DNA of 64,000 nucleotides from NCBI GenBank assembly GCA_017414645.1, contig JAFQLL010000017.1:6057-70056 (forward strand), written 5' to 3'. This stretch comes from Clostridia bacterium. GTDB taxonomy: Bacteria; Bacillota; Clostridia; UMGS1883. This document shows, in pieces, positions 3,118 to 34,800 of this stretch (positions within the stretch are counted from its first letter, which is position 1; each line of letters opens with the position of its first letter). The notes under the pieces are model-generated. The model saw nothing but the letters and a program-made list of their open reading frames with translations, was not told the DNA's origin and did not search any database. Position numbers and translations under genes: made by a program.

Positions 3118-3284
3118 GTGAAGTTTTTGCTTATGCAAAAGTGAAGTTGTTCGTTTCACTCACAGTGAAGTTTTTATTGCATAAAAGTGAAGTTAAGTTT
3201 GAACTTCGGCGTAAGCCGAAACTTCACTCGCGAAGTGAACTTCACTATCGAAGATAACTTCGCTTGCCGACAGGCAAACTTAGT
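3118..3284 (+). repeat. GTGAAGTT/AACTTCAC 'ladder' element, copy 1 (candidate structured 3'-UTR RNA)
   Basis: Four GTGAAGTT at 3118, 3141, 3165 and 3187. Central hairpin TTCGGC-GTAA-GCCGAA. Complements AACTTCAC at 3220 and 3238, degenerate at 3256 and 3277. Small side hairpins lie between octamers. A second copy is at 21515-21683. Confidence 0.75.
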
Positions 3285-3313
3285 TGTCAGCAGAGCTGAC
3301 AGAGGTGATTTTT

Positions 3314-4570
3314 ATGAGCAGTCCTTTGGCAGACAGAATACGTCCTGACAGCCTGGATTTGGTTGTAGGTCAGCATCATTTGCTGGGCGAAGGAAAGGTA
3401 TTACGCAACATTCTTGAATCGGGTAACATTCCTAACATGATTTTTTACGGCCCCAGCGGTGTTGGCAAAACAACCGTTGCAAACATTGCGGCAAAAAGGG
3501 CAAACAAGCGTCTTTTCAAGCTCAATGCAACAACTGCCTCCGTTGCCGATGTAAAGCATGTTGTAGAGGAGTCCGAAACACTTTTCGGCACAGACGGTGT
3601 GCTTTTATATCTGGACGAAATACAGAACTTTAATAAAAAACAGCAGCAAAGCCTTCTGGAATGCATTGAAAACGGCAAGGTTACCCTCATTGCATCAACT
3701 ACCGAAAACCCCTATTTTTATGTATATAACGCCATTTTGTCACGTTGTACAGTGTTCGAATTCGAGCCTGTTGGCCCCAAGGACATTTGCGAGGCAATTG
3801 ACAGAGCAACCCATCTTTTAGGCGAGGGCGTTGTAATAGAAAATGATGCAAAGGAGCATATTGCAAATACCTGTTCTGGCGACGTGAGAAAGGCTCTTAA
3901 CACTCTTGAGGTTGCATCTCTTACAGCAAAGGCAGACGAGAGTGGCAAGCGCTTGATTACCTTAGACATAATTGAACAGGCAACAAGAAAAAAAGCCTTC
4001 CGCCACGACCGTGACGGCGACGACCACTACGACGTTTTGTCCGCTTTCCAGAAGTCTGTACGAGGAAGCGACCCCGACGCGGCACTTCACTACATGGCGC
4101 GCCTTTTAACAGCAGGGGACCTGCAAAGCGTAACAAGGCGCATTCTTGTTATGGCAGCCGAAGACATTGGTCTTGCGTACCCTAACGCAATTGTAATAAC
4201 AAAGGCATGCGTTGATGCGGCGCTGCAGCTTGGTCTGCCCGAAGCACGCATCCCTCTTGCCGAAGCTGTTATAATGCTGGCAACTGCGCCGAAGTCAAAC
4301 AGTGCAATCTGCGCTATCGATGCTGCCATGGCAGACATAGCCTCCTCCGACACAGGCGAGGTGCCTTATCACTTAAAGGACAGCCACTATAAAGGTGCTG
4401 AAAAGCTTGGCCATGGTCAGGGCTATAAATATCCTCATTCTTATCCTAACCACTATGTGCCACAGCAATATCTGCCCGACAAAATTAAAAACAAAAAATA
4501 CTACACCTATGGCGACAACAAGATGGAGCAGGCAACTGAAAACTATTGGAAGAGTGTAAAAGGAAAATAG
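3314..4570 (+). CDS. rarA: Replication-associated recombination protein A (AAA ATPase)
   Basis: Walker A GPSGVGKTT and an MgsA/RarA-type C-terminal domain. Start set at ATG 3314 behind RBS AGAGGTG; the track ORF begins at an upstream TTG. Stops at TAG 4568-4570. Confidence 0.92.
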   Translation: MSSPLADRIRPDSLDLVVGQHHLLGEGKVLRNILESGNIPNMIFYGPSGVGKTTVANIAAKRANKRLFKLNATTASVADVKHVVEESETLFGTDGVLLYLDEIQNFNKKQQQSLLECIENGKVTLIASTTENPYFYVYNAILSRCTVFEFEPVGPKDICEAIDRATHLLGEGVVIENDAKEHIANTCSGDVRKALNTLEVASLTAKADESGKRLITLDIIEQATRKKAFRHDRDGDDHYDVLSAFQKSVRGSDPDAALHYMARLLTAGDLQSVTRRILVMAAEDIGLAYPNAIVITKACVDAALQLGLPEARIPLAEAVIMLATAPKSNSAICAIDAAMADIASSDTGEVPYHLKDSHYKGAEKLGHGQGYKYPHSYPNHYVPQQYLPDKIKNKKYYTYGDNKMEQATENYWKSVKGK

Positions 4571-10771: not shown

Positions 10772-10789
10772 GAAAGTGTTTTAATATCA

Positions 10790-10996
10790 CAACCCCCTCT
10801 TCCGTTTGCGGTGCCCTGTATCAACTTCGCTAATCCGCTCGTTGATGACAGACCGCGGCACAGCTCTGCGCATTCGCTCAATCATCCACCGGATGCGCTC
10901 ATGCTCGATTCCCCCAATCTTGGGGGATGAAAAGGTGCACTTTCATTTTATAAGCAAACATGCACACATCTTGCGTGCATGTTCCAATATAATAGG
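10790..10996 (+). repeat. Structured intergenic repeat family, copy A
   Basis: Only 3 mismatches over the first ~148 nt against 30535-30737. Core shared with 26530-26660. Confidence 0.8.
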
Positions 10997-11015
10997 AAAA
11001 AGTTGAAAAAACATC

Positions 11016-11044
11016 TTGACAAAGCCCTGACCATTTGCTATAAT
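11016..11044 (+). promoter_or_regulatory. SigA promoter of tRNA operon (TTGACA-17-TATAAT)
   Basis: Perfect consensus hexamers, 30 nt upstream of the first tRNA. Confidence 0.8.
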
Positions 11045-11073
11045 AACAAAGGTCCTTGAAAAAAGGGTGATAT

Positions 11074-11147
11074 GCGGGTGTAGTTCATCGGTAGAATTCC
11101 AGCCTTCCAAGCTGGTTAGGTGGGTTCGACTCCCATCACCCGCTCCA
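11074..11147 (+). tRNA. tRNA-Gly(UCC)
   Basis: Cloverleaf folded by hand; anticodon loop CUUCCAA; encoded CCA. Confidence 0.9.
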
Positions 11148-11153
11148 AAATAC

Positions 11154-11230
11154 GTGCCTGTAGCTCAGCTGGATAGAGCAACTGCCTTCTAAGCAGTAGG
11201 TCCTGGGTTCGAGTCCCCGCAGGCACGCCA
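11154..11230 (+). tRNA. tRNA-Arg(UCU)
   Basis: Acceptor GTGCCTG/CAGGCAC; anticodon loop CUUCUAA; encoded CCA. Confidence 0.9.
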
Positions 11231-11267
11231 TTTTTTTATTCAGTGTCATTTCAAATGGCACTCATAT

Positions 11268-11345
<78 letters not shown>

Positions 11346-11417
11346 TTATTAAAAAAACAGGATCCGGTGATACCGGGGCTTCCGCGAACCGGTCTTGAGC
11401 GATTCGCTCTTTTATTT

Positions 11418-11493
11418 TGGACCGTAGCCAAGCGGTAAGGCACCGGACTTTGACTCCGGCATTTCGTGGGTTCAAATCCCGCCGGTCCAGCCA
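11418..11493 (+). tRNA. tRNA-Gln(UUG)
   Basis: Acceptor TGGACCG/CGGTCCA; anticodon loop CUUUGAC; encoded CCA. Confidence 0.88.
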
Positions 11494-11496
11494 CAT

Positions 11497-11572
11497 GGGA
11501 CACTAGCTCAGTCGGTAGAGCACTTGACTTTTAATCAAGTTGTCGGGGGTTCGATTCCCCCGTGTCTCACCA
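11497..11572 (+). tRNA. tRNA-Lys(UUU), integration target
   Basis: Anticodon arm CTTGA-CTTTTAA-TCAAG; T arm GGGGG-TTCGATT-CCCCC; encoded CCA. The 3' 46 nt are duplicated at 18742-18787. Confidence 0.92.
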
Positions 11573-11573
11573 A
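11527..11573 (+). repeat. attL core (47-bp direct repeat)
   Basis: Identical to 18742-18788. Confidence 0.9.
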
Positions 11574-11574
11574 A

Positions 11575-11606
11575 CCCTTGATTTCTTCGGAAATCAAGGG
11601 TTTTTT
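11575..11606 (+). terminator. Element-borne terminator now closing the tRNA operon
   Basis: CCCTTGATTTC-TTCG-GAAATCAAGGG followed by TTTTTT. Confidence 0.8.
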
Positions 11607-11679
11607 GTTGCCTTTGTTCCAGTCTGACTGAACACTTGATTTTTGAAATCTATAATAAAAATCAAGAGGGCAGAAAATT

Positions 11680-12609
11680 ATGAAAAAATTCAAAATGAAC
11701 ATCGGAAACACAGTAGCGGAAACTTTCGAGGATTTTATAATATCCCGAAAGGTAAAAGGATTGAGCGACAAAACACTAAAGACCTACAATCAACACTTTA
11801 AAGCCATAAGCCGCCATATCTCGGTTGATATTCCAATAGACACATTGAGTAAAGCCGACTTGGAGGAAATGGTTTCAAATATGCGCGAAGCGGCTCTTTC
11901 GGCAACTACAATAAGCAGTTATGTACGAACTATGAAAGCGTTTCTTTCTTGGTGCAATGAGGAAGATATAACAACACTCACAATTCAGAATTACAAATGC
12001 GCAGAAACAATAAAAGAAACGTACACCGACAAAGAGCTTGAAAAGCTACTTAAAAAACCAAATATCCGAAAGTGTCTTTTCTCCGAATACAGAACTTGGG
12101 TCATAATCAACTTGCTTGTGAATAATGGTTGCCGCGCGGCAACTGTACGAAACATCAAAAACAAAGATGTTGATTTAGAAAACTTCGTTATTTATTTAAG
12201 GCATACCAAAAGCAAAAAAGCACAAGTGATTCCATTGTGTACAGAACTTTGTTTAATACTCAAAGAGTATATGCGCATACGAAGCGGCTCGGAGGATGAT
12301 TTCCTTTTTCCAACAGAAGAAGGGACACAAATGAAAGAGTTTTGTTTGCGAAGCAGCATTGCAAGGTACAACAACAGGCGCGGCGTACAAAGAACAAGCA
12401 TACACGCATTCCGTCACACTTTCGCGCGCAAATACTTGGTTGACTGCGGCGGCAATGCTTTTACACTTCAACGCCTTTTGGGTCACTCCACATTAGAAAT
12501 GACAAAGCATTATTGCGCTATCTTCGACAGGGATATTGCAAAGAACTATGACCGCTTCTCTCCGCTTTCGCAACTTAAATCCAGTAGTAACCGCATTAAA
12601 ATGAAATAA
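11680..12609 (+). CDS. Tyrosine site-specific recombinase (phage integrase family)
   Basis: SAM-like N-domain. C-terminal catalytic residues in ...HAFRHTFAR...LLGHSTLEMTKHY. Confidence 0.9.
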   Translation: MKKFKMNIGNTVAETFEDFIISRKVKGLSDKTLKTYNQHFKAISRHISVDIPIDTLSKADLEEMVSNMREAALSATTISSYVRTMKAFLSWCNEEDITTLTIQNYKCAETIKETYTDKELEKLLKKPNIRKCLFSEYRTWVIINLLVNNGCRAATVRNIKNKDVDLENFVIYLRHTKSKKAQVIPLCTELCLILKEYMRIRSGSEDDFLFPTEEGTQMKEFCLRSSIARYNNRRGVQRTSIHAFRHTFARKYLVDCGGNAFTLQRLLGHSTLEMTKHYCAIFDRDIAKNYDRFSPLSQLKSSSNRIKMK

Positions 12610-12690
12610 GGTAAAACAAAATACAACAAGCCTCAACAAACTAAAACAAAGCAGTCTAAAGTATCAACTTTTGACTGCTTTTATTATCTT

Positions 12691-13722
12691 TTATTCAGTT
12701 TCGTATACGCTCTGTATTTTGGAAATGTATTCTTTCATTTGTTCTACAACGTGCGGCGGATTTTCTATCTTTGCCTTTTTGCCGAAGCCACAAAGCCATC
12801 CAAAGAATTGGTCACTTATTTCAACGTCTGCCGCCACTATAAAATGGTTTTTATCCTTTGCCATATAAAAGACATCAGACTCTGTTCCGAACCTTTCTAT
12901 GACAGTATCAAGAAGCGGATTGATGAAACGTATAACAACGTGTTCGCGAGTGCCGTTGAACATTGAAAAAACGCGGCGCGTGTATGTTGTTAAATCAATC
13001 TTTGCAAAAACTTCTTCTCCTTCTCTTGGCTCTGCGATTTCTCTGACATCTTTCATACGGTCAACACGATATGTACGGAAATCGTTCTTTTCACTATCAA
13101 AAGCCAAAAGGTAATAGTTGCCATCATTGATTAAAAGTTTAAAGGGACTTACTTTGTATGTGTTTCCCTTTTTACGTTCTACTTGTGAGTGAACATCATC
13201 TATTGTGTACTTTAGATATTTAAAGGTTATCTTTCGCGGCGTATGCGGCTTTCCGTTGCGTTTCTTTGCCATTGCATAGTTTATTCTGTCAATGATTTTT
13301 ATAATATGTTTTTCTGTGGTCTTAACCCTGTCGCACATAAAAACTTCTTTTTCTAATTCTTCGCGCTGATAAAAACTGCAGAACTTGCCTAAAGTTTCAA
13401 CAAGGTCTCTTGCTTGGGGTGCTGAAACAAACTTTGCCGCGCAAACACATTCAGCCAAAAGGCGTAATTCGTCATAGTCAAAATCACGCGATAAAAGCCT
13501 AAATCTGCCGCCTTGCATTCCGTCAATATCCATACCGAAAACATCTCTTAAAAGAGCTATATCGCGGTAAATTGCGCGCCTTTCCGCAACTATATCACAC
13601 TCATTTTTTAAATAGTCGCATATGCCTTTTTCAGTTGCTACTGGATGGTTTTCGTCCGAGTATTCAAGAAGGTATTTCGCAACGTATAATATTCGCAATT
13701 TTGTGATTTCGTTTTTTGGCAT
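12691..13722 (-). CDS. HTH + WYL-domain transcriptional regulator
   Basis: N-terminal wHTH; WYL-domain signature around YYLLAFD...FRTYRVDRM. Start set at ATG 13722 behind AAGAGG. Confidence 0.8.
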   Translation of the reverse strand: MPKNEITKLRILYVAKYLLEYSDENHPVATEKGICDYLKNECDIVAERRAIYRDIALLRDVFGMDIDGMQGGRFRLLSRDFDYDELRLLAECVCAAKFVSAPQARDLVETLGKFCSFYQREELEKEVFMCDRVKTTEKHIIKIIDRINYAMAKKRNGKPHTPRKITFKYLKYTIDDVHSQVERKKGNTYKVSPFKLLINDGNYYLLAFDSEKNDFRTYRVDRMKDVREIAEPREGEEVFAKIDLTTYTRRVFSMFNGTREHVVIRFINPLLDTVIERFGTESDVFYMAKDKNHFIVAADVEISDQFFGWLCGFGKKAKIENPPHVVEQMKEYISKIQSVYETE

Positions 13723-13794
13723 ATTAAAACCTCTTTCGTTAGTATAATAATATAATAACATCAACTTTGCAAAAATACAACGAAAAACAAATGT

Positions 13795-13838
13795 TTGACT
13801 TGATGCAAAAGTGTGGTATAATAACTATACCACACTTT
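13795..13838 (+). promoter_or_regulatory. Strong rightward promoter (TTGACT-16-TGgTATAAT) overlapped by a perfect 13-5-13 palindrome
   Basis: AAAGTGTGGTATA-ATAAC-TATACCACACTTT at 13808-13838 covers the -10 element. Divergent from the WYL gene promoter (TTGCAA-17-TATTAT on the minus strand). Confidence 0.65.
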
Positions 13839-14008
13839 CACTTTAATAATAAAACACCGAGCATTCTTGGGAATGTTCTGTTTTGCTATTCAAAAATATA
13901 CACATAAGCAAAGTTGTGTTTTGCAAAAAATGCGGCTTTAATATGTGCTTTGTTTGTGTGTATTATTGAGAGTGAATGTGTGGTAGCATAAATCTCCGCC
14001 GCGTTTTT

Positions 14009-14045
14009 ATGCGTGGTGACGATTTATGTTGCCACGCATTTTTTA
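14009..14045 (+). terminator. Terminator-like hairpin ~185 nt downstream of the 13795 promoter
   Basis: ATGCGTGG...CCACGCAT stem followed by TTTTTAATT. Confidence 0.5.
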
Positions 14046-14284
14046 ATTGCGTGAGAATTACGAAAGGAGATTTTGAGTTGAAAAAACGTAATGTCACCCA
14101 GTCCAAAAGTAGAAGCATGGGGCGGTATATTATGGGAGATAAAAAATCGAAAGTCATATTTTGATATATAGGAGGTCATTCCAATTTTGAAATGTGATTT
14201 TGATTTTGCCGTCTCCGACAAATCACACAATTAAAAAAGCACACTTATATTTCAAGGTGTGCAAACACAGAAAGGAAAATTATT

Positions 14285-15361
14285 ATGAAAAGAAATGTTT
14301 CTCTCTTATTGGCAGTAATACTCACATTGTTGAGCTTTTCGTCTGTTTCTGCTAAAGCAGATGGAAGCCTGTCTAATTTTCAAGCAGTACAAAGCTACAC
14401 AGAAGGTCAATTTACAGATGTTTCATCTTCTGCTTGGTATGCTCCTAACGTAAAATATACTTATGAAATTGGTTTGATGAATGGCAATAGTGATACAACA
14501 TTTAACCCTGACGGAAATATATTGCTTTCCGAAACTATTGCATTAGCAAGTCGTTTACATAGTATATATTATAATGGTGAGGCAAGTTTTGAAGCAAGTA
14601 CACCTTGGTATCAGTCTTATGTTGATTATGCAATAGATAATCGTATAATCGGTTCTGGCAAATATACATACTTTGATAAAGCAACAAGGGCAGATTTTGC
14701 TGAAATTATGGCAAAAGCTTTACCTTCAGAAGTATATAATAAAATCAATACTGTTGACGATGATGCTATTCCCGATGTTAAAACTGCAGCAAAATATTCC
14801 GATGCGGTATATACTCTTTACAGAGCAGGTATTGTAACAGGTAGCGATGCAGAAGGAACTTTTAATCCTACATCAAATATTAAACGCTCTGAAGTTGCTG
14901 CAATCGTATCCCGAATTGTTGATAAAACACAAAGAAAGTATATCACACTTAAATATGAAGTTTCCGAGACATATAAGTATTTTCCTGTTAAAACACTAAC
15001 TGCTGTAACTGGGGCTGAATGTAAGGATTCATATACGGGATATAGTATTCAGATAAACAATGGATACATTGAAGATAACAATACATTTAATTATGATGTT
15101 AAATCAGTATCAGATTATGATAGGTACTTTGTTCCTTATATAGAATACCTTGAATCAAATCCAAATGTTACAAGATATAGCAGCGACGGAATGGACCTTG
15201 GTGGTTTTACTAATGTTTCTTATACGTATAAATTAAATGATGGTAGCAATAAATACATAGATGTTTCATGGAATTATGGAGAATATACTAAAACCTATAG
15301 TATACGGGTATGGATGTATGGAATTAAGAACGGAAAAGTTGTTTGGATTCAGAATATGTAA
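14285..15361 (+). CDS. Secreted S-layer-homology (SLH) domain protein
   Basis: Signal peptide. SLH-like repeats (FTDVSSSAWYAPNVKY..., FNPDGNILLSE, FNPTSNIKRSEVAAIVSR). Confidence 0.75.
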   Translation: MKRNVSLLLAVILTLLSFSSVSAKADGSLSNFQAVQSYTEGQFTDVSSSAWYAPNVKYTYEIGLMNGNSDTTFNPDGNILLSETIALASRLHSIYYNGEASFEASTPWYQSYVDYAIDNRIIGSGKYTYFDKATRADFAEIMAKALPSEVYNKINTVDDDAIPDVKTAAKYSDAVYTLYRAGIVTGSDAEGTFNPTSNIKRSEVAAIVSRIVDKTQRKYITLKYEVSETYKYFPVKTLTAVTGAECKDSYTGYSIQINNGYIEDNNTFNYDVKSVSDYDRYFVPYIEYLESNPNVTRYSSDGMDLGGFTNVSYTYKLNDGSNKYIDVSWNYGEYTKTYSIRVWMYGIKNGKVVWIQNM

Positions 15362-15397
15362 ACAAAAAGAGTGGGATTTCCCACTCTTTTTGTTTAT

Positions 15398-15522
15398 GTT
15401 CGTAAAGGTACACCTTTAGAAACAGGCAAAAAGGGCGTGTTTTCCTTGTTCGTAAAATATTAAAAATTATTTGCGAATATGTTCGTAAAATTGTTGACAT
15501 TTGCGAACAGCGGAGGTATAAT
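15398..15522 (+). promoter_or_regulatory. res-like repeat cluster plus TTGACA-17-TATAAT promoter of the serine recombinase
   Basis: GTTCGTAAA at 15398, 15448 and 15481. Inverted TTTGCGAA(C) at 15470 and 15500. -35 at 15494-15499, -10 at 15517-15522. Confidence 0.6.
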
Positions 15523-15551
15523 ATAGCTATAATCAACAAGGGGGCAATACA

Positions 15552-16160
15552 ATGGAAACACGTACTTACTATTATGCGAGAGTATCAAGCAAGGAACAAA
15601 ACCTTGACAGACAGATTGAGGCTTTCAAAGCTCTTGGAGCTGATGAAAGAGATATTATAACAGACAAGGAAAGCGGCAAGGACTTGAACCGCACAGGCTA
15701 TACCGCATTAAAAAATGCAATGCTCCGAAAAGGCGATACGCTTGTTGTAAAATCTCTTGACCGTCTTTCAAGAAACAAAGCAGACATTAAAAACGAACTG
15801 CAATTCTTTAAAGATAACGGCATCCGTTTAAAAGTTATCGACTTGCCAACAACAATGATGGAATTGCCAGTAGGTCAAGAATGGGTGTTTGAAATGGTAA
15901 ACAACATCTTGATTGAGGTTTTGGGAACAATCGCAGAACAAGAGCGCGAGACAATCAAAAAAAGACAAGCTGAAGGTATCGAAGCGGCAAAGAAAAACGG
16001 CAAGCGTTTGGGGCGTCCCGCACTTGTTTTTCCGCAGAATTGGAAGCAAGTGTATGCTGACTGGCAAGAAGGTAAAATTACCGCCAAAACTGCAATGGAA
16101 TTGACCGATACCAAGAGAACAAGTTTTTATAAGTTAGTGCAAATGACTGAAGGCAAATAA
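15552..16160 (+). CDS. Small serine recombinase (resolvase/invertase family)
   Basis: YYARVSSKEQNLDRQ catalytic-Ser motif; C-terminal HTH; 202 aa. Confidence 0.9.
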   Translation: METRTYYYARVSSKEQNLDRQIEAFKALGADERDIITDKESGKDLNRTGYTALKNAMLRKGDTLVVKSLDRLSRNKADIKNELQFFKDNGIRLKVIDLPTTMMELPVGQEWVFEMVNNILIEVLGTIAEQERETIKKRQAEGIEAAKKNGKRLGRPALVFPQNWKQVYADWQEGKITAKTAMELTDTKRTSFYKLVQMTEGK

Positions 16161-16192
16161 AAAAGACGGGAGGCGTTGACCTCTCGTCTTTG
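16161..16192. terminator. Bidirectional terminator between convergent genes
   Basis: AAGACGGGAGG-CGTTGA-CCTCTCGTCTT. Confidence 0.65.
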
Positions 16193-16196
16193 AGTT

Positions 16197-16595
16197 TTAT
16201 ATTAAAGTGTTCAATACATCTTTTGCATTGACCTTGACCACATCAAATAGTCTCCAATCTTCTACTTTTGGAATCTATGTATTAAGAAGCGGCTTGTATT
16301 GTCTGATGTATTCTCCTTCTTTGTTTCCAATTTCATCATCAATAGCATAATACCCCTAACTGCTTGCATAATAAAGAACATCAAAGTTAATTGAATGCCC
16401 TTTCCTTTGCGCCTCGGACAGTATGCGGTATTTCAATTCGCTTTCGCATTTTATACCGACATAGTGTTGCGCCACGCGTTTTAGCATATTCTGACTTTTG
16501 CCGATGTAAACAATCTATTCATCGACCTTTATACAGTAAATGCCTGCGTGCTCGTATTTTGGTGCAAGACCTTGTCTTTTCAAGTAATTATACAT
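16197..16595 (-). pseudogene. GIY-YIG nuclease-like gene with three in-frame TAG codons (pseudogene or amber-recoded)
   Basis: Hand translation gives MYNYLKRQGLAPKYEHAGIYCIKVDE*IVYIGKSQNML...YYASS*GYYAIDDE...LLNT*IPKVEDW...LI, ending in TAA. TAG at 16515-17, 16356-58 and 16275-77. RBS GAGG. Confidence 0.7.
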
Positions 16596-16612
16596 ATTAA
16601 CCTCGTAGCTCA

Positions 16613-17176
16613 TTAGAATACAAACCCCTTTTCTTTTGGTTCTCTTTGCGGTCTTGGTATGACAATCTCTTTTACTTTTGGAACTTCTATGACTGCTTTC
16701 TGTTGGTTATTCTCTCCGTTATTTGTTTTATTATTTGTTATAATATTATCTATTTCTATACTACTGGGGTCAATTAAATTGTTGGCAGGCTCTTCTTCTT
16801 GAACGTTTCCCGTATTCTCAAAATCGCGAGCCGACAAATTATTTTTTAATTGAGCGCCACGCGCCTGAGGTACTTCGTAAAAATCAAAAGTATTGCTTCC
16901 AGTTTCGACCAAATAGCCTTTGTTAATTAGAATTTTTAACTGGTCGCGATAGGTGGAACGCGCCATCCCTATGGATAGGTTGACCGCTTCGGGCGAAAGC
17001 GCAAACGTATAGTTGTCTGCATTTGCCGCAAAATATAAGTAAAGAGAAAAGGCATATGGCTACAAATCTTTAATGGCATTTTGCCAATTCTCATTCTTGA
17101 TACCTAAAAAATCATTTGTAATTTTTTGTCTGTGAACCCGAACCATTCTTTGGTTCGGATAACTTATTCTTGCCAT
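16613..17176 (-). pseudogene. Winged-helix, replication-initiator-like protein gene with one in-frame TAG
   Basis: MARISYPNQRMV...NAIKDL*PYAFSLYLYFAANADNYTFALSPEAVNLSIGMARSTYRDQLKILINKGYLV... TAG at 17060-17062. The track ORF 16613..16966 is only the distal part. Ends in TAA. Confidence 0.65.
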
Positions 17177-17180
17177 AATT

Positions 17181-17366
17181 TTATCGTCCTTTCGTTGTAT
17201 CTTTTAATGGTTTGAAAATCTTATCAAGTGATTGTTCGATAATTTCTTCAAACTGTTTTTCTATGCCGATGGTATAGAATATTCTTTTGCGCTCCTTTTG
17301 GAGAATCTCGTGCGGTTGCAGATTGTCTTTCTTATATTCTGCATATCTCTAAATTGCGGATTTCAT
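17181..17366 (-). pseudogene. 61-codon small gene with one in-frame TAG at codon 6
   Basis: AGGAGG 8 nt upstream of ATG 17366. MKSAI*RYAEYKKDNLQPHEILQKERKRIFYTIGIEKQFEEIIEQSLDKIFKPLKDTTKGR. The TAA is 4 nt before the next ATG. Confidence 0.5.
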
Positions 17367-17486
17367 TATAAAATCCTCCTTTCATTTTTACTTTCTATAA
17401 TTATTATACAAAAATTTTTTATAAAAATCAAAGTGAGGCGAAGCGGTACTCGTTAAAAAAAGAGTTTGTTCTATGTGAACAAACTC

Positions 17487-17927
17487 TCATCCGTTAGCTG
17501 CTTCTGCTTTTGTTTCGTACTCGTCAATATTAGGTTCGGGTACAGGAAAAGCAGCAATATTCTTGGGTTCAAAATCGGGTAATTCTTTATACGTGGGGAA
17601 CTGCGCGTTGAACCAATCGCAAACATACTTGTAGGGGCAAGCCAAGGGCGCAGACTTTGCTTTTATAGTCTCGAAGCGGCTTAAGAGCTCGTTAGCGTTT
17701 GCAAATGTGTTAATGTACTTTTCCATATTTTCATAGGTTAAACGCTTGTTGTAGCGCGGTTTTTTCTGTTCTCTGCCGGACTTAACAATTACGCTAAAAT
17801 TGGGAAAATCACTTAATATGCTCTTGCGAATATTGTATTCTTCCGAGCCGTAAACGGAAGCCGCCGCGGCAAACTTAAAATTCATAATCAATGTGTTTGT
17901 TGTGAAATCAATCTTATATCCTGTCAT
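17487..17927 (-). CDS. Hypothetical protein, paralogue B of a tandem pair
   Basis: 146 aa. Shares the Y(E/D)NMEKYI ... PYKYV(C/L)DWFN blocks with 17943..18380. Confidence 0.7.
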   Translation of the reverse strand: MTGYKIDFTTNTLIMNFKFAAAASVYGSEEYNIRKSILSDFPNFSVIVKSGREQKKPRYNKRLTYENMEKYINTFANANELLSRFETIKAKSAPLACPYKYVCDWFNAQFPTYKELPDFEPKNIAAFPVPEPNIDEYETKAEAANG

Positions 17928-17942
17928 TGTAATATCCTCCTA

Positions 17943-18380
17943 TTATTTATTAACTGCATTATTGAACGGAACAACGTTTTCTTGTTCATTTGTCTTTTCT
18001 TCTTTGAAAATATCATGTGTTTCATAGCCTTTGAATGTTTCGTTGAACCAATCCAAAACATACTTATAGGGGTTCTTTTGGATTGCGGAAGCGGCTTTTA
18101 CCTTTTCAAACGTTACAAGATATGCCGCACTATCTTTGCCGCAAGCTGTCTTAATGTACTTTTCCATATTATCGTATGTGCGGTTCCTGTTTGTTTTCTT
18201 GTCGGGATTCTTCTTAATGCTCTTGGTTCTCATTTCAGCGTTGGGGTATCTTGTAATGAACTGTTCCCACATTTCGTATTCAGCTGAACCAAAGATTCTT
18301 GCATTTTTCATAAATGCCTTTGTTACCTGACCTACTACTGTTCCGTTTGTGTTTCTAATTACTGTAATCTGATTTTTCAT
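17943..18380 (-). CDS. Hypothetical protein, paralogue A of a tandem pair
   Basis: Start set at ATG 18380 (MKNQITVIRN) behind AAGGAGG. Shared blocks with 17487..17927. Confidence 0.7.
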   Translation of the reverse strand: MKNQITVIRNTNGTVVGQVTKAFMKNARIFGSAEYEMWEQFITRYPNAEMRTKSIKKNPDKKTNRNRTYDNMEKYIKTACGKDSAAYLVTFEKVKAASAIQKNPYKYVLDWFNETFKGYETHDIFKEEKTNEQENVVPFNNAVNK

Positions 18381-18741
18381 AATGAAAAACCTCCTTAAAA
18401 AAATTTTATTATTTAGAGTTTTGAGAGTTTGTTTATCTCTGTTCTCTATGGCTTTATTATAGCAGGCGCATAAGAAAAAGTTGTACCACAAATAGAACAA
18501 GTGAAAAATAATAAAAAACTTTTTTAGTATAAAACAGTACCAGAAACTTAATAAAAGTTGATGATTTGTTCTAATTAGAAGCGGCTTGAAAAAACTTGTT
18601 GACTTTTGGATAAGTTTGATCTAACATAATCTTATCAAGAATTAAGTGTGCAGTTTGGCTTTAAAATCAACGAGAGCATACGAAGAATGCCGATGAAATC
18701 GGGGTTTGCAAGGTGTCATCAATTTGCCTGAAAGGCAAATC

Positions 18742-18788
18742 ACTTTTAATCAAGTTGTCGGGGGTTCGATTCCCCCGTGTCTCACCAA
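18742..18788 (+). repeat. attR core (47-bp direct repeat = 3' part of tRNA-Lys)
   Basis: Identical to 11527-11573. Confidence 0.9.
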
Positions 18789-18797
18789 CATAAAAGG

Positions 18798-19663
18798 CAC
18801 TTGCAGTAGCAAGTGCCTTTTATGTTGGCAAGATGTGGGATATATCCCACACACTTAATAAAGTGCAATACCGACTGAGCGTGCGAAGGAGGGAGTAACG
18901 GAGTCCGACCGCGCCCGGTGGGCGATGCAGGGAGCACGCAAAGGCTGTGCCGCAACACAATGAAACAAGCCACATGCTGTGCGGCGCAGTTGAATTGATG
19001 TTGCAAACGTAAACGACCGTTTGGGTTCCGCTCTCCAAAACGGAATGGGATAAAAATCACTTGCAGTAGCAAGTGCCTTTTATGTTGGTAAGATGTGGGA
19101 TACATCCCACACACTTAATATAGTGTAATACCGACTGAGCGTGCGAAGGAGGGAGAACTGCGTAGCGACCGCCTCCTGCGGAGGATGAAGGGAGCACGCA
19201 AAGGCTGTGCCGAGGTCGAAGTAGCCGAGCGAGATAGCGAGGATACGAGGGCACCTCAAACGTAAACGACCGTTTGGGTTCCGCTCTCCAAAACGGAATG
19301 GGATAAAAATCACTTGCAGTAGCAAGTGCCTTTTATGTTGGCAAGATGTGGGATATATCCCACACACTTAATAAAGTGCAATACCGACTGAGCGTTGCGA
19401 AGGAGGTAGTAACGGAGTCCGACCGCGCCCGGTGGGCGATGCAGGGAGGACGACGGGCTGTGCCGCAACACAATGAAACAAGCCGCATGCTGTGCGGCGC
19501 AGTTGAATTGATGTTGCAAACGTAAACGACCGTTTGGATTCCGCTCTCCAAAACGGAATGGGATAAAAATCACTTGCAGTAGCAAGTGCCTTTTATGTTG
19601 GCAAGATGTGGGATATATCCCACACACTTAATAAAGTGCAATACCGACTGAGCGTGCGAAGGA
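18798..19663 (+). repeat. Tandem array, 3.3 copies of a 253-260-bp structured unit
   Basis: Unit-initial hairpin CACTTGCAGTAGCAAGTG at 18798, 19058, 19311 and 19571. Conserved 5' and 3' blocks flank a ~100-nt variable block. Confidence 0.9.
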
Positions 19664-30454: not shown

Positions 30455-30534
30455 AAAAATCACCTCAATAAAGCGATTTTATCATACAAAATAGGGAAGT
30501 GCAAGGGTAATGTAAAAAAGCATTTTAAATGCTT

Positions 30535-30737
30535 CAACCCCCTCTTCCGTTTGCGGTACCCTGTATCAACTTCGCTAATCCGCTCGTTGATGACAGACCG
30601 CGGCACAGCTCTGCGCATTCGCTCAATCATCCACTGGATGCGCTCATGCTCGATTCCCCCAATCTTGGGGGACGAAAAGGTAAGCTTTTATTTCATAAGC
30701 AAATATGCGCACATTCTGCGCGCAATTTCCTATATGA
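30535..30737 (+). repeat. Structured intergenic repeat family, copy B
   Basis: Near-identical to copy A over ~148 nt, then alignable with compensatory hairpin changes. Confidence 0.8.
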
Positions 30738-30768
30738 TAAAAACAGCGTGGAGAATTACTCCACGCTG
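30737..30768 (-). terminator. Terminator of the RHS operon
   Basis: Minus strand: CAGCGTGGAG-TAAT-TCTCCACGCTG followed by TTTTTAT. Confidence 0.65.
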
Positions 30769-31891: not shown

Positions 31892-34800
31892 TTAGTAGTT
31901 AGAATTGCCAAAGATTTTAACAAGACTTTCGTGCAGAGCTACGGGTATAATTTCTGTTATTGAGGGATATTCCCACATTTTTTGAACTTCTCCCCAAAAC
32001 CCTTCGTATTTTGAGAAATCTCCGTCGTATAGAATTTCCATTGATTTCGTTGCACATGAGCTACCAACTGCAAGATAGATTTCATCATCCCAGTCGAATT
32101 TGCCGTTGTTTTTTTCTACATCGTTTTGAGCATGTTCGATAGATTCTGTAAAGTCACCTTCAATATAGACACTTTTATCATAATTATTAAACGAATTTTC
32201 ATCATGTACACCAGAGGCAACCAGCCATTTATTAAGATCATCAATATTATCAAGAGGATATATTACGGTTCCATCGCTCATAGTATATGAATCTGGTACT
32301 TCTACTAAAATCACAGTTGCAGTCCAAATCGGCATTCCGCTTTGACTTGGACCAAAATAGTAATAACTCCATTTTCCAGTGCTCTCATCTTCTAACAAAA
32401 GAGATGTGTGCCCCAGCCCACCAACTGCAGTAGATGCAGTTATTACTCGTGCATCTAACCCACTCGGGTCAACAAACGCAATGGGGTTATTACTACAATA
32501 CACATACCAGTTCGTTCCGTCCTTGATGGGGTCAACGGAAATGAAGCGACCTATTGAGGGGTCATAATAACGTGCACGAAGGTAAATGTCGCCTGTTTCG
32601 TTGTCGAGATATTCACCTGCATAGCGGAACGGGTTTGTATCGGTTGACCTTTCTCCCTGCCATATTTCACCAAAGGGAGAATAGTAATAATTCTGCACAA
32701 TGGGATATTTAACACTGGCGGTGTTTAAGTCCATAAAGTCAAACTCACCATCGCAGTTCAAATCCATCTCGGGGAATGGTGCAGCAGAGCCGTAGAAGGG
32801 TGAAAGATACAAATCAACACTGTCGATTGCCATGGTGTGAACAACGTTGCCTCTGCCGTCATAGGCGTAAAATTCGTGATAGCCGTTGACGGGAACAACA
32901 GTTTCAACATAATCGTCGAGGGTTTCGTCATAATAAGAGTCAATAAATGCATTGTAGGTGTATGCATCGCCCTTTACAGTACGGGAAACACGGTTAACAC
33001 CGTAGAAATAGTCTGTTGACTTGTCAGGTGTTTCCTCGCGGACAATGTTGTCGCCAGCCCAGATGAAGGAAGTGGTTACACCGTTTGCTGTTTTGCTTGT
33101 TCTTAAAGAAGAAGCATTGTAGGTGTAGGTATATGTTCCGCTTTGGGTTGTAACGGATGCAACCTCGTTACGTGGTGTGTAGGTATACTGATAAGTAACC
33201 GAGTCGTTAAGCTTGGCAATGGTGTTGCCGTTTGCATCGTAGCGGTACTCGGTAACGTTGCCTGCTGTGTTTTCGCTTGTTAAGCGGTGATTTGTGTAGG
33301 TATAAATAGTTGCTGTGGAAACGTTTTCGGCATCTGTTACGGTCTGGCTTGTGCGGTCACCACGATTGTTGTAGTTGTAGCCCCATGTGCGGACACGCGC
33401 GCCGTTGTTGGTTGTGTTTGCAATTGTAAGGCGGTTGGCAGCATCGTAGCCATAGATGGTGTCGTAGGTGGTGCTGCCGCGTGTGTCGGACACGGTTTTC
33501 ACATTGCCGTCGGGGTAGTAGGAATACACAAAGGATGAAAACTCGCGTATATCATTGTAGCCTTCTTCGTATGTGGGGTCATTGACAAGGCGACGGCTAT
33601 GGGTAGTGGATTTCATTAAATTACCGGGAGTGTATTCATACTCGGTAATAAGTCCGCTCTTTTCCTCGGTTGTGGGGAAGCCGTTTTCGTTATACTCATA
33701 CACTACAGTGTCAACACCATCGGAGGCAGAGGTCATATTGCCAAGGATGTTATACTCGTATGTATTGGTTTGCAGTGTGGTAGTGCCCTTTTTAAGGAGC
33801 ATGGTTTCAACCTGCCCTGCAGTATTATATGTACGGAGTATGGAATTATCCCCTGTAACCTCTGATATGTTACGACCAAAGTTGTCGTATGCATAGGTTG
33901 TGGCAACATTGTTACGGCTTGCCAATGTAATGTAATTGAAGGAATTGTATTCATATTCAATCACGTCGCCTGCTACAACAGATTCTAAAAGATTGCTTCT
34001 TGAATCGTAGGTGTTATACGTAACCTGGCCCTTGGGGTCGGTTGTTGTAAGTGTGTTGCCTGCAAGGTCGTAGGTGTAGGAGGTTGTGCCGTTAAAGGTT
34101 GTTTCGGATATAAGGTTGCCGAAGTTGTCGTATGCAAAATCAGTAACATTATAGGTTGAATTAAGGGGCGTAAGCTCAGAAATGTCAGTTGTTGAGCTCT
34201 CTAAGCCTGACACCGTTTTTACGAGCTGATTGCCGTCGTATTGGTTAACTGTGTAGGTTGAACCGTTAAAGGACGATACAAGGCGGTTGCGGTTGTCATA
34301 AGAATAAGTGTATGCAACATCGCCTGCTGCCGCTGAAACAACTGTTTTGACAGTATTGCCGTTAGCGTTGTAATAATAGCTTGAAAGGCCTGTTACATCA
34401 GTATCAACAGGGGCTGACTTGGTGAGCATACGACCGATGGAGTCATAAGTATAGGTTGTGGTGTTACCCATGTAGTCTGTTGTTGAAAGCTGTCTGCCTA
34501 ATACGTCGTAAGTGTTGGTAATGTAATTTTCATCGGCATTATATGCCTTAATTACCTGGTTATTATAATTATACTCGTATTTCTGCGAATAGTCAACATC
34601 ATAATCTGCATAGGCAGCTTCGTCCTTGTATTCAAGCACGTTGCCAAGGGCATCGTAGGTATAGGTAGCAATATACTCATTATCTCCGTCGGTTGTGATT
34701 TGCTTGCACAATCTTCCTTGGCGGTCGAGGTATTGCTTCACCGTGGGAGGAGTGATGCCGTCCTTTGGTGTTGATTCTACGGTGACAGAAGTGAATTGAT

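Follow-up and report, generated by a model that had tools for sequence, protein, structure and literature searches.

So far, the recoding of stop codons has been known from phages, where it serves to time the phage's own late genes. Oscillospiraceae are known to harbour TAG-recoded prophages whose integrases are TAG-free, and the authors who reported them suggested that recoding might let one phage sense another of the same code (Borges et al., 10.1101/2021.08.26.457843). Here we analysed a window of 64,000 nt from an uncultured gut Clostridia bacterium (assembly GCA_017414645.1, contig JAFQLL010000017.1, positions 6,057 to 70,056), a host that uses the standard code. Within this window, to which all coordinates below refer unless a locus is named, an element of 7.2 kb (11573-18788) sits inside a tRNA-Lys gene, bounded by a 54-nt direct repeat, and carries a three-gene operon with in-frame TAG codons. 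A first reading of the letters alone, called the sequence-only reading below, had likened this module to the recoded prophages with standard-code integrases, an apt comparison in that the integrases are TAG-free (10.1101/2021.08.26.457843). In the literature that we searched, code-based helper dependence was described for none of the satellites, and we came across neither this element family and its promoter nor any recoded satellite, integrative mobilizable element or plasmid.

The three-gene operon and its in-frame TAG codons

Reading and translating the minus strand between 16100 and 17500 gave five in-frame stops, all of them TAG, spread over three coupled genes:

17366 to 17181, minus strand: small gene, first in the operon, 61 aa; in-frame TAG at 17349-51; ends in TAA
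17176 to 16613, minus strand: Rep-like winged-helix gene, second in the operon, 187 aa; in-frame TAG (= Gln) at 17060-62; ends in TAA
16613 to 16197, minus strand: GIY-YIG nuclease gene, third in the operon; TAGs (= Gln) at 16515-17, 16356-58 and 16275-77; ends in TAA

The three frames contain zero frameshifts and zero internal TAA or TGA codons. An AGGAGG lies 8 nt 5' of the small-gene ATG, and 4 nt separate the TAA of the small gene from the start of Rep. Retranslation returned the same TAG positions as the sequence-only reading, which had described TAG-only interruptions in three consecutive genes, and it reproduced the ribosome-binding site, the tight coupling and the lack of other lesions on which that reading had relied. 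For the nuclease gene, the earlier description held for the TAGs and the TAA end but not for the start, which had been put at 16595. The start is most likely at 16613, where an ATG would overlap the Rep stop as TAATG, because the resulting protein begins with the MSYEVNMYNY N-terminus of its homologues. Standard-code, NCBI-style annotation calls only fragments of these genes (P0124; 38-, 118- and 32-aa calls in the related locus L001).

The TAGs are concentrated in the operon. Its glutamine codons comprise 5 TAG and 19 CAR (CAG or CAA), against 0 TAG and 38 CAR in the other six genes of the element, an excess with a hypergeometric p of about 0.007 (arithmetic done by hand). These six genes have no TAG inside and none as terminal stop; a check of the open reading frames (ORFs) here agreed with the sequence-only reading, which had called them uninterrupted and noted that none ends in TAG. 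The 56 long host ORFs end in TAA (32), TGA (19) or TAG (5), the last group including the gene at 3284-4570 that had earlier been cited as a host gene stopping at TAG.

Database matches bear on the identities of the nuclease and the Rep-like protein. For the nuclease, Pfam PF01541 scores 20.5 bits, slightly below the cut-off of 22.6, and PHROG 1111 (endonuclease) matches with E 6.5e-8. GIY, YIGKS, R40, E88 and N105 are invariant in its alignment with homologues, so that the GIY-YIG motif is present, and precomputed PF01541 matches exist on those homologues. The Rep-like protein matches replication-initiator and DnaD-like families (PHROG 270/428/678/186, E 1.5e-6 to 8e-4). Its structure model shows a winged-helix core with a disordered tail (predicted local distance difference test score, pLDDT, 64), with weak structural matches to generic winged helices, and its sequence had no match in the PDB. 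Searches of the element proteins with PADLOC and NCBIfam added nothing on the function of Rep or parA, and the PADLOC matches to the nuclease were marginal.

A protein search with the nuclease and Rep returned hundreds of full-length homologues, the closest of which have Q at the TAG positions. These database proteins disagree with the standard-code translation of their own contigs; the database gene caller had used TAG = Q, and the contigs behind the homologues carry TAG at identical codons. L001, an NCBI metagenome-assembled genome (MAG), is 95.9% identical to the window over 4.8 kb and ends at the same attR, and L002, a Logan contig, is 95.6% identical. These two and the ENA contig L003 retain every window TAG that they cover, that of the small gene among them, which with the window makes four independent assemblies. 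The ratio of synonymous to non-synonymous changes is 9:1 (against L002) and 12:5 (against L001) in the GIY-YIG gene and 24:16 in Rep; an indel of 3 nt in L001 keeps the frame. The sequence-only reading had named conservation in other copies as a check on its claim, and the TAGs are indeed conserved amid purifying selection. In L181, a copy from the same host species with flanks 96-98% identical, the window Rep TAG (Rep position 39) is replaced by CAA, and the nuclease has an ordinary Gln codon at position 27 and retained TAGs at positions 80 and 107. Since TAG and CAR thus swap between copies within one species, they act as synonymous codons; together with the conserved TAGs and the mostly synonymous divergence, this rules out a sequencing artefact, random decay or deaminase damage as the origin of the TAGs.

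The pattern across the element family

Two independent collections were used for the wider comparison. A MAG collection with a single genome per species yielded 55 loci when scanned with the Rep alignment, and scanning metagenome contigs with the nuclease alignment gave a further 80. ORFs were called with TAG as sense and anchored on the window proteins. Clustering all neighbouring ORFs in six frames picked up shadow frames and was dropped in favour of the reference-anchored counts. The 55 loci come from gut and rumen MAGs of Oscillospiraceae, Acutalibacteraceae, Faecousia, Ructibacterium and Dysosmobacter and from the isolate Pseudoflavonifractor phocaeensis An901 (L027), and protein identity among them is 40-60%. 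The assemblies GCA_052833385.1 and GCA_965321895.1 are carriers as well. Besides the operon, the window element has the following features, where homologue counts refer to the MAG collection and the metagenome collection in turn:

11520 to 11573, plus strand: attL, the 3' end of the host tRNA-Lys(UUU), whose gene lies at 11497-11572; repeat 94% identical to 18735-18788
11680 to 12609, plus strand: tyrosine integrase (Pfam Phage_integrase, E 5.6e-27); TAG-free, ends in TAA; TAG in 0 of 24 and 0 of 19 homologues
12691 to 13764, minus strand: WYL/WCX-domain transcription regulator (Pfam WYL and WCX; PADLOC WYL); TAG-free; TAG in 0 of 12 and 0 of 7 homologues
14285 to 15361, plus strand: cargo gene for a secreted protein with S-layer-homology (SLH) domains (Pfam SLH, E 3.8e-20); TAG-free
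15552 to 16160, plus strand: small serine recombinase of resolvase/invertase type (Pfam Resolvase, E 8.8e-31); TAG-free; TAG in 0 of 31 and 0 of 10 homologues
16162 to 16191: terminator-like hairpin between the convergent recombinase gene and the recoded operon (plus strand 16162-16191, minus strand 16183-16170)
17390 to 17431, minus strand: operon promoter (-35 TTGATT, -10 TATAAT, extension TATAGAAAGT; promoter-scan site 17431-17403)
17488 to 17460, minus strand: terminator-like hairpin separating parA from the operon
17487 to 17927, minus strand: parA, a conserved protein of 146 aa found only in this element family; TAG-free; TAG in 0 of 36 and 1 of 22 homologues
17943 to 18383, minus strand: parB, a 146-aa paralogue of parA (33% identity); TAG-free; TAG in 0 of 27 and 0 of 9 homologues
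18735 to 18788, plus strand: attR, the second copy of the tRNA-Lys 3'-end repeat, where homology between L001 and the window stops

With a promoter-like site and a terminator-like hairpin before and after it, the operon appears to be a transcription unit of its own. The same gene order is conserved in the family: resolvase, parB, parA, the recoded trio (small gene, Rep, GIY-YIG), cargo, WYL, integrase and tRNA. Its members measure about 5-9 kb, lie beside many different tRNA genes and lack structural genes.

In-frame TAGs follow this layout closely. Among the MAG loci they occur in 24/58 Rep and 26/38 nuclease genes, and among the metagenome loci in 18/42 Rep and 71/80 nuclease genes (the latter with 115 TAG and 322 CAR codons), while over both collections they occur in none of the 43 integrase homologues. 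When near-identical copies are excluded, Rep and GIY-YIG together have 63 TAG to 581 CAR codons, against 0 to 846 for the par, integrase, WYL and resolvase genes (Fisher p = 1.8e-24). Altogether, about 180 TAGs were found in Rep and GIY-YIG homologues over about 140 related gut and rumen Clostridia loci. Genes in the small-gene slot of the distant relatives L015, L030 and L033 likewise contain TAG, and the cargo genes there do not; cargo genes are TAG-free in all the relatives that were mapped in detail.

The TAGs stand where glutamine is expected. The sequence-only reading had proposed tabulating the residue opposite each TAG in an alignment of homologues; over all unique sequences that residue is Gln, enriched 8x in the nuclease and 14x in Rep. 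Columns in which Gln is otherwise invariant show the exchange directly: VAQHY has 19 TAG and 13 Q, NTQIPK 4 TAG and 32 Q, and PNQR 11 TAG and 43 Q. TAG is found at 44 distinct columns, and one GIY-YIG homologue has a tandem TAG-TAG. Most homologues are full length without TAA or TGA (48/58 Rep and 35/37 GIY-YIG), the two remaining GIY-YIG copies being truncated or split. Terminal stops are TAA in 68 of 77 Rep and nuclease genes; integrases end in TAG in 4 of 20 cases, as expected if they are read in the standard code. In locus L167, a non-homologous gene of 279 aa in the Rep slot has two TAGs, and three more lie in an extra gene of 71 aa that follows the nuclease. Recoding therefore belongs to the operon as a unit, not to one gene lineage.

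Judged by these alignments, TAG is shown to be used as a selected Gln sense codon (genetic code 15), equivalent to CAG and CAA and confined to this operon, and the integration, regulation and cargo genes of the family appear to be written in the standard code. As for what marks code 15 elsewhere, the TAGs lie in intact genes under purifying selection and stand opposite Gln; no CUA tRNA to decode them was found in the window, the element or about 140 related loci.

The window element differs from its host in base composition (GC content 0.364 versus 0.434), and the 7.2 kb between its att repeats are fully accounted for; Pfam, PHROGs and NCBIfam recognised no virion structural, packaging or lysis genes there. 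The structure model of parA is confident (pLDDT 83), yet it had no PDB match. The SLH cargo was seen again in the relatives L061, L062 and L167. In L164 (8315-13188), the cargo consists of a DNA methyltransferase, a convergent restriction-like gene and a DUF262-like protein, which suggests defence cargo in the family. A Ructibacterium MAG (JAZRPL01) has family members on four contigs (L005, L007, L038 and L058), with TAGs in L038 only; if its binning is right, recoded and non-recoded relatives share one genome.

Several observations concern the surroundings of the element. Directly outside attR, a 260-nt unit is repeated 3.4 times in tandem (18790-19663). Both of its strands are strongly structured (z = -4.3 and -5.1), Rfam gave no match, and apart from 92-nt partial matches in L181 the unit is missing from the other fetched loci. 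Compared with window positions 10991-18881, the five-tRNA array and the element segment of L181 are inverted relative to the flanks. Repeats of about 230 nt at 10775-11001 and 30507-30743 coincide with the inversion breakpoints, and either these repeats or the serine recombinase of the element might have mediated the inversion. Further away, an ORF of 1857 aa (31892-37465, minus strand) starts in an AT-rich stretch (GC 0.31 at 31-32 kb) and probably encodes a giant surface protein.

The operon promoter, large phages and the search for a decoder

The window operon is preceded by TTGATT-N17-TATAAT-AAT-TATAGAAAGT, and the corresponding promoter of a group of large phages reads TTGAAA-N17-TATAAT-ATA-TATAGAAAGT. 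The extended motif TATAAT-N3-TATAGAAAGT has a single exact match in the 64-kb window, at the operon, where 0.06 matches would be expected even when two mismatches are allowed. It is found exactly, and on the operon strand, in 34 element loci of many species. With at most two mismatches, 41 of 71 loci have it within the 700 nt upstream of Rep; elsewhere in those loci (1.6 Mb) there were nine matches. Some 45 nt of the promoter are near-invariant even where the Rep proteins of the elements share only about 50% identity. In many elements (L019, L020, L022, L024, L050, L061, L170 and others) the leader after TATAGAAAGT contains ACTTTC 8-15 nt downstream, forming a GAAAGT...ACTTTC inverted repeat, a possible operator or 5' RNA hairpin; it is missing from the window copy.

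The phages came to light through one of two IMG/VR matches (L060/L182), which forms one end of a contig of 96 kb whose genes include PHROG matches. Four relatives of L182 (L183-L186, 104-146 kb) were retrieved through a neighbouring gene. Each of the five carries the promoter motif 3-4 times per 20 kb, including just ahead of a tRNA array. Their Rep-like gene is 30% identical to the window Rep and has TAG at the PNQR glutamine, and an adjoining gene of 73 aa has three TAGs. In L186 (18403-19416), a protein of 337 aa has ten in-frame TAGs at the Q positions of internal repeats. These repeats, which also contain CKCDCGN, read DLTGqRFG in two copies and DLTGQKFG in the third and themselves show TAG = Q. 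Judging from these genes, the L182-L186 phages are TAG=Gln recoded in at least some of their genes. An initial assignment of a whole minus-strand recoded block in L182 was withdrawn: three genes are convincing, and the other TAG-rich ORFs look like shadow frames. As far as a repeated copy of the phage promoter, L182 and L183 are 99.98% identical; from there, L182 continues into an element-type operon of small gene, Rep and nuclease, at a junction (near contig position 94,078) where its relatives have the tRNA array. This junction is either a natural recombinant or insertion or an assembly chimera.

The tRNA arrays of the phages include Gln(UUG), Gln(CUG), a tmRNA and a Lys(CUU) with a 42-nt intron in the anticodon loop. 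Two suppressor candidates in these phages were discarded: the intron-bearing tRNA is that Lys(CUU), and a tRNA-Sec-like match proved to have the anticodon loop of Tyr(GUA). Immediately 5' of the phage tRNA-Ser(GCU) lies a twister-P1-like ribozyme match of 51.7 bits, below the gathering score. The phage RNA sites are:

L195, 4894-5010
L195, 2025-2340
L189, 5647-5704

No CUA tRNA or tRNA-like RNA was detected by ARAGORN and Rfam in the window, the element or the roughly 140 related loci. A scan for such a tRNA had been proposed in the sequence-only reading, and it came back empty for the element, its relatives and the approximately 45 kb of related phage sequence alike. Among IMG/VR tRNAs of Gln type with a CUA anticodon and the host anticodon arm, seven suppressors were found, which are only about 50% identical to the host tRNA-Gln and gave no link. 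We found no viral contigs with the host tRNA-Lys 3' end, which would be candidate attP sites, and no viral relatives of the element integrase. Rep and GIY-YIG were absent from GenBank phages and gave one weak match in plasmids. ORFs next to elements that had been flagged as recoded turned out to be non-coding or shadow frames.

The common promoter and the Rep homologue lend circumstantial support to the plausible idea that a recoded phage provides the decoder in trans. The leading hypothesis of the sequence-only reading, that TAG is sense here and is decoded with the help of a recoded phage, therefore fares differently in its two halves, the former being strongly supported and the latter only plausible on circumstantial grounds.

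Proposed conditional translation, competing explanations and related systems

In standard-code cells, RF1 ends translation at TAG, and the operon genes should therefore give only short N-terminal fragments there. As each gene has one to four TAGs, leaky readthrough cannot yield useful amounts of protein. Given a sense TAG, no decoder of the element's own and negligible leak, conditional translation under a code-15 phage is the best-supported mechanism. Such gating agrees with the reasoning put forward for recoded prophages and their TAG-free integrases, and with the suggested sensing between phages of one code (10.1101/2021.08.26.457843); here it would extend to an element that has no virion genes. 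In an ordinary host, RF1 would terminate at the operon TAGs, Rep and the nuclease would stay unmade, and the element would be quiescent. Once a TAG-to-Gln recoding phage is active in the cell and decoding has been switched, the operon would be translated. Its transcription may be co-activated as well, through the same extended promoter as in the recoded phages, and the element would then replicate and act on DNA. The decoder could be a suppressor tRNA or another phage factor. Under this proposal, the genetic code would be the trigger by which the element parasitises recoded phages in the manner of a satellite, or senses them. We consider phage-dependent conditional translation, together with a satellite-like or sensor role, to be the best overall explanation, with a probability of roughly 0.6; the supply in trans, the identity of the helper and the outcome, whether hitch-hiking or interference, we infer. 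More tentatively, and with slightly less than even confidence, we suggest that these elements are the first known 'genetic-code satellites'. They would have no decoder of their own and an operon locked behind TAG=Gln and a promoter of recoded-phage type, so that a code-15 phage that arrives or is induced would, by altering the decoding in the cell, both signal their activation and make it possible, with hitch-hiking or sabotage as the possible result.

Several results weigh against phage-dependent translation. Neither a suppressor tRNA nor any other decoder was identified, no helper was found for this host, and no recoded prophage adjoins the element at any locus. In the phages, roughly 45 kb of sequence with at least 30 tRNAs contained no CUA tRNA; the phage tRNAs are 64-78% identical to those of the window host, which is uninformative on phage host range, and the junction of phage and element in L182 could be a chimera. 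Some family members have no TAG at all yet retain the promoter. Of the known TAG-recoded phages, only about 40% have a detectable suppressor tRNA; the lack of one in cis therefore argues only weakly for supply in trans and leaves room for another decoding mechanism. Pfam, PHROG, PADLOC and NCBIfam recognised no genes for packaging, capsid redirection or helper interference, no contig had the terminal overlaps of a circular or excised form, and no encapsidated form was seen, so that 'satellite' is here an inferred role.

The absence of an identified helper also favours an explanation without any phage, in which the TAGs are decoded by the element or the host itself, either as leaky stops read by the near-cognate tRNA-Gln(CUG) or with an element factor such as parA or parB. 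As 60% of recoded phages are without a detectable suppressor tRNA, tRNA-independent mechanisms may exist, and parA and parB, which lie directly upstream of the operon, are specific to the family, contain no TAG and have no known fold. A or C follows 84% of the in-frame TAGs, a bias confounded by a few recurrent columns. However, up to 3-4 TAGs per gene and the tandem TAG-TAG make leaky readthrough negligible, the host ends genes at TAG, many TAG-bearing elements have no detectable parA or parB homologue, and the promoter common to recoded phages would be left unexplained. We regard self-decoding as unlikely, about on a par with, if anything a shade above, the idea that the operon is an anti-phage trap. 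In such a trap, the GIY-YIG nuclease would be translated only after an infecting code-15 phage had made TAG readable, and its attack on the DNA of the phage or the host would amount to abortive infection or interference. The nuclease is the most heavily recoded gene, with TAG in 71 of 80 homologues, relatives carry defence-like cargo (the methyltransferase, restriction-like and DUF262-like genes of L164), and WYL regulators are frequent in defence islands. Against this idea, which we also hold to be unlikely, stand the marginal PADLOC matches of the nuclease and its constant coupling to a Rep-like initiator and a tyrosine integrase, as in mobile replicons; moreover, satellite and defence roles are compatible.

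Far less probable than either is that the genes are simply dead, through decay, through C-to-T deamination of CAG or through assembly or sequencing errors. A single C-to-T change does turn CAG into TAG, and standard-code annotation yields fragments only; but the same TAGs recur in the four independent assemblies, and purifying selection acts downstream of them. The roughly 180 TAGs lie in homologues most of which are full length and free of internal TAA or TGA (48/58 Rep and 35/37 GIY-YIG), the genes beside them in the same elements are TAG-free, and TAG persists at invariant Gln columns in proteins only 40-60% identical. Deaminase damage, one of the alternatives in the sequence-only reading, is rejected by the conserved TAGs, the purifying selection and the exchange of TAG and CAR, and its other alternative, a coincidental cluster of pseudogenes, does not survive the family-wide TAGs at Gln columns in intact genes.

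The family described here consists of small, widespread, non-viral elements of human and animal gut Clostridia that are recoded in a single operon and lack their own decoder. Should a recoded phage be needed to translate this operon, the genetic code would serve as a signal between genetic elements, and a satellite or defence island would have a new way to sense a specific class of phage. The speculative idea of recoding-based sensing between elements of the same code would thereby become directly testable. Standard-code annotation fragments or discards these genes in MAGs, which makes the family invisible in current catalogues; the TATAAT-N3-TATAGAAAGT promoter offers a handle for finding both the elements and candidate partner phages.

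Output gated by UAG decoded as Gln is familiar from supE hosts (tRNA-Gln CUA) with amber mutants and from UAG readthrough in murine leukaemia virus (MuLV) gag-pol. Compared with these, the arrangement in the element is natural, multi-site, conserved in a family and spread over an operon, and we identified no RNA signal that would stimulate readthrough. In Firmicutes, integrative mobilizable elements combine a tyrosine integrase, a tRNA target, small size, a Rep-like gene and cargo. The element shares these features and differs in that no relaxase or oriT was recognised and in that its replication module is recoded. With satellites (PICI, P4-like, PLE and PICMI; PMC10085698, PMC10803314), it shares the format of a small tRNA-adjacent island with an integrase, a regulator, an initiator of its own, cargo and no virion genes, as well as helper-dependent expression, which for the element is a proposal; P4 uses helper-type promoters as well. 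It differs from them in that no terS, capsid-size redirection, primase-helicase or AlpA/Stl-type regulator was found, nor any cpm, sid, psu or ppi.

The closest likeness is to the code-15 phages (Topaz, Garnet prophages, crAss-like and Lak phages; 10.1101/2021.08.26.457843, PMC9523058), with which the element shares in-frame TAG at Gln in a standard-code host, a TAG-free integrase and recoding limited to a module whose expression should be delayed. The host clade of Topaz is also the same (Oscillospiraceae), and the gut or rumen habitat is shared. These phages measure at least 22 kb, against 5-9 kb for the element family, which differs from the Topaz/Garnet type in having no structural, packaging or lysis genes and no suppressor tRNA in about 140 copies. 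Code-15 recoding and recoded Oscillospiraceae prophages were thus known; what appears to be new is the same code in one operon of a non-viral element family.

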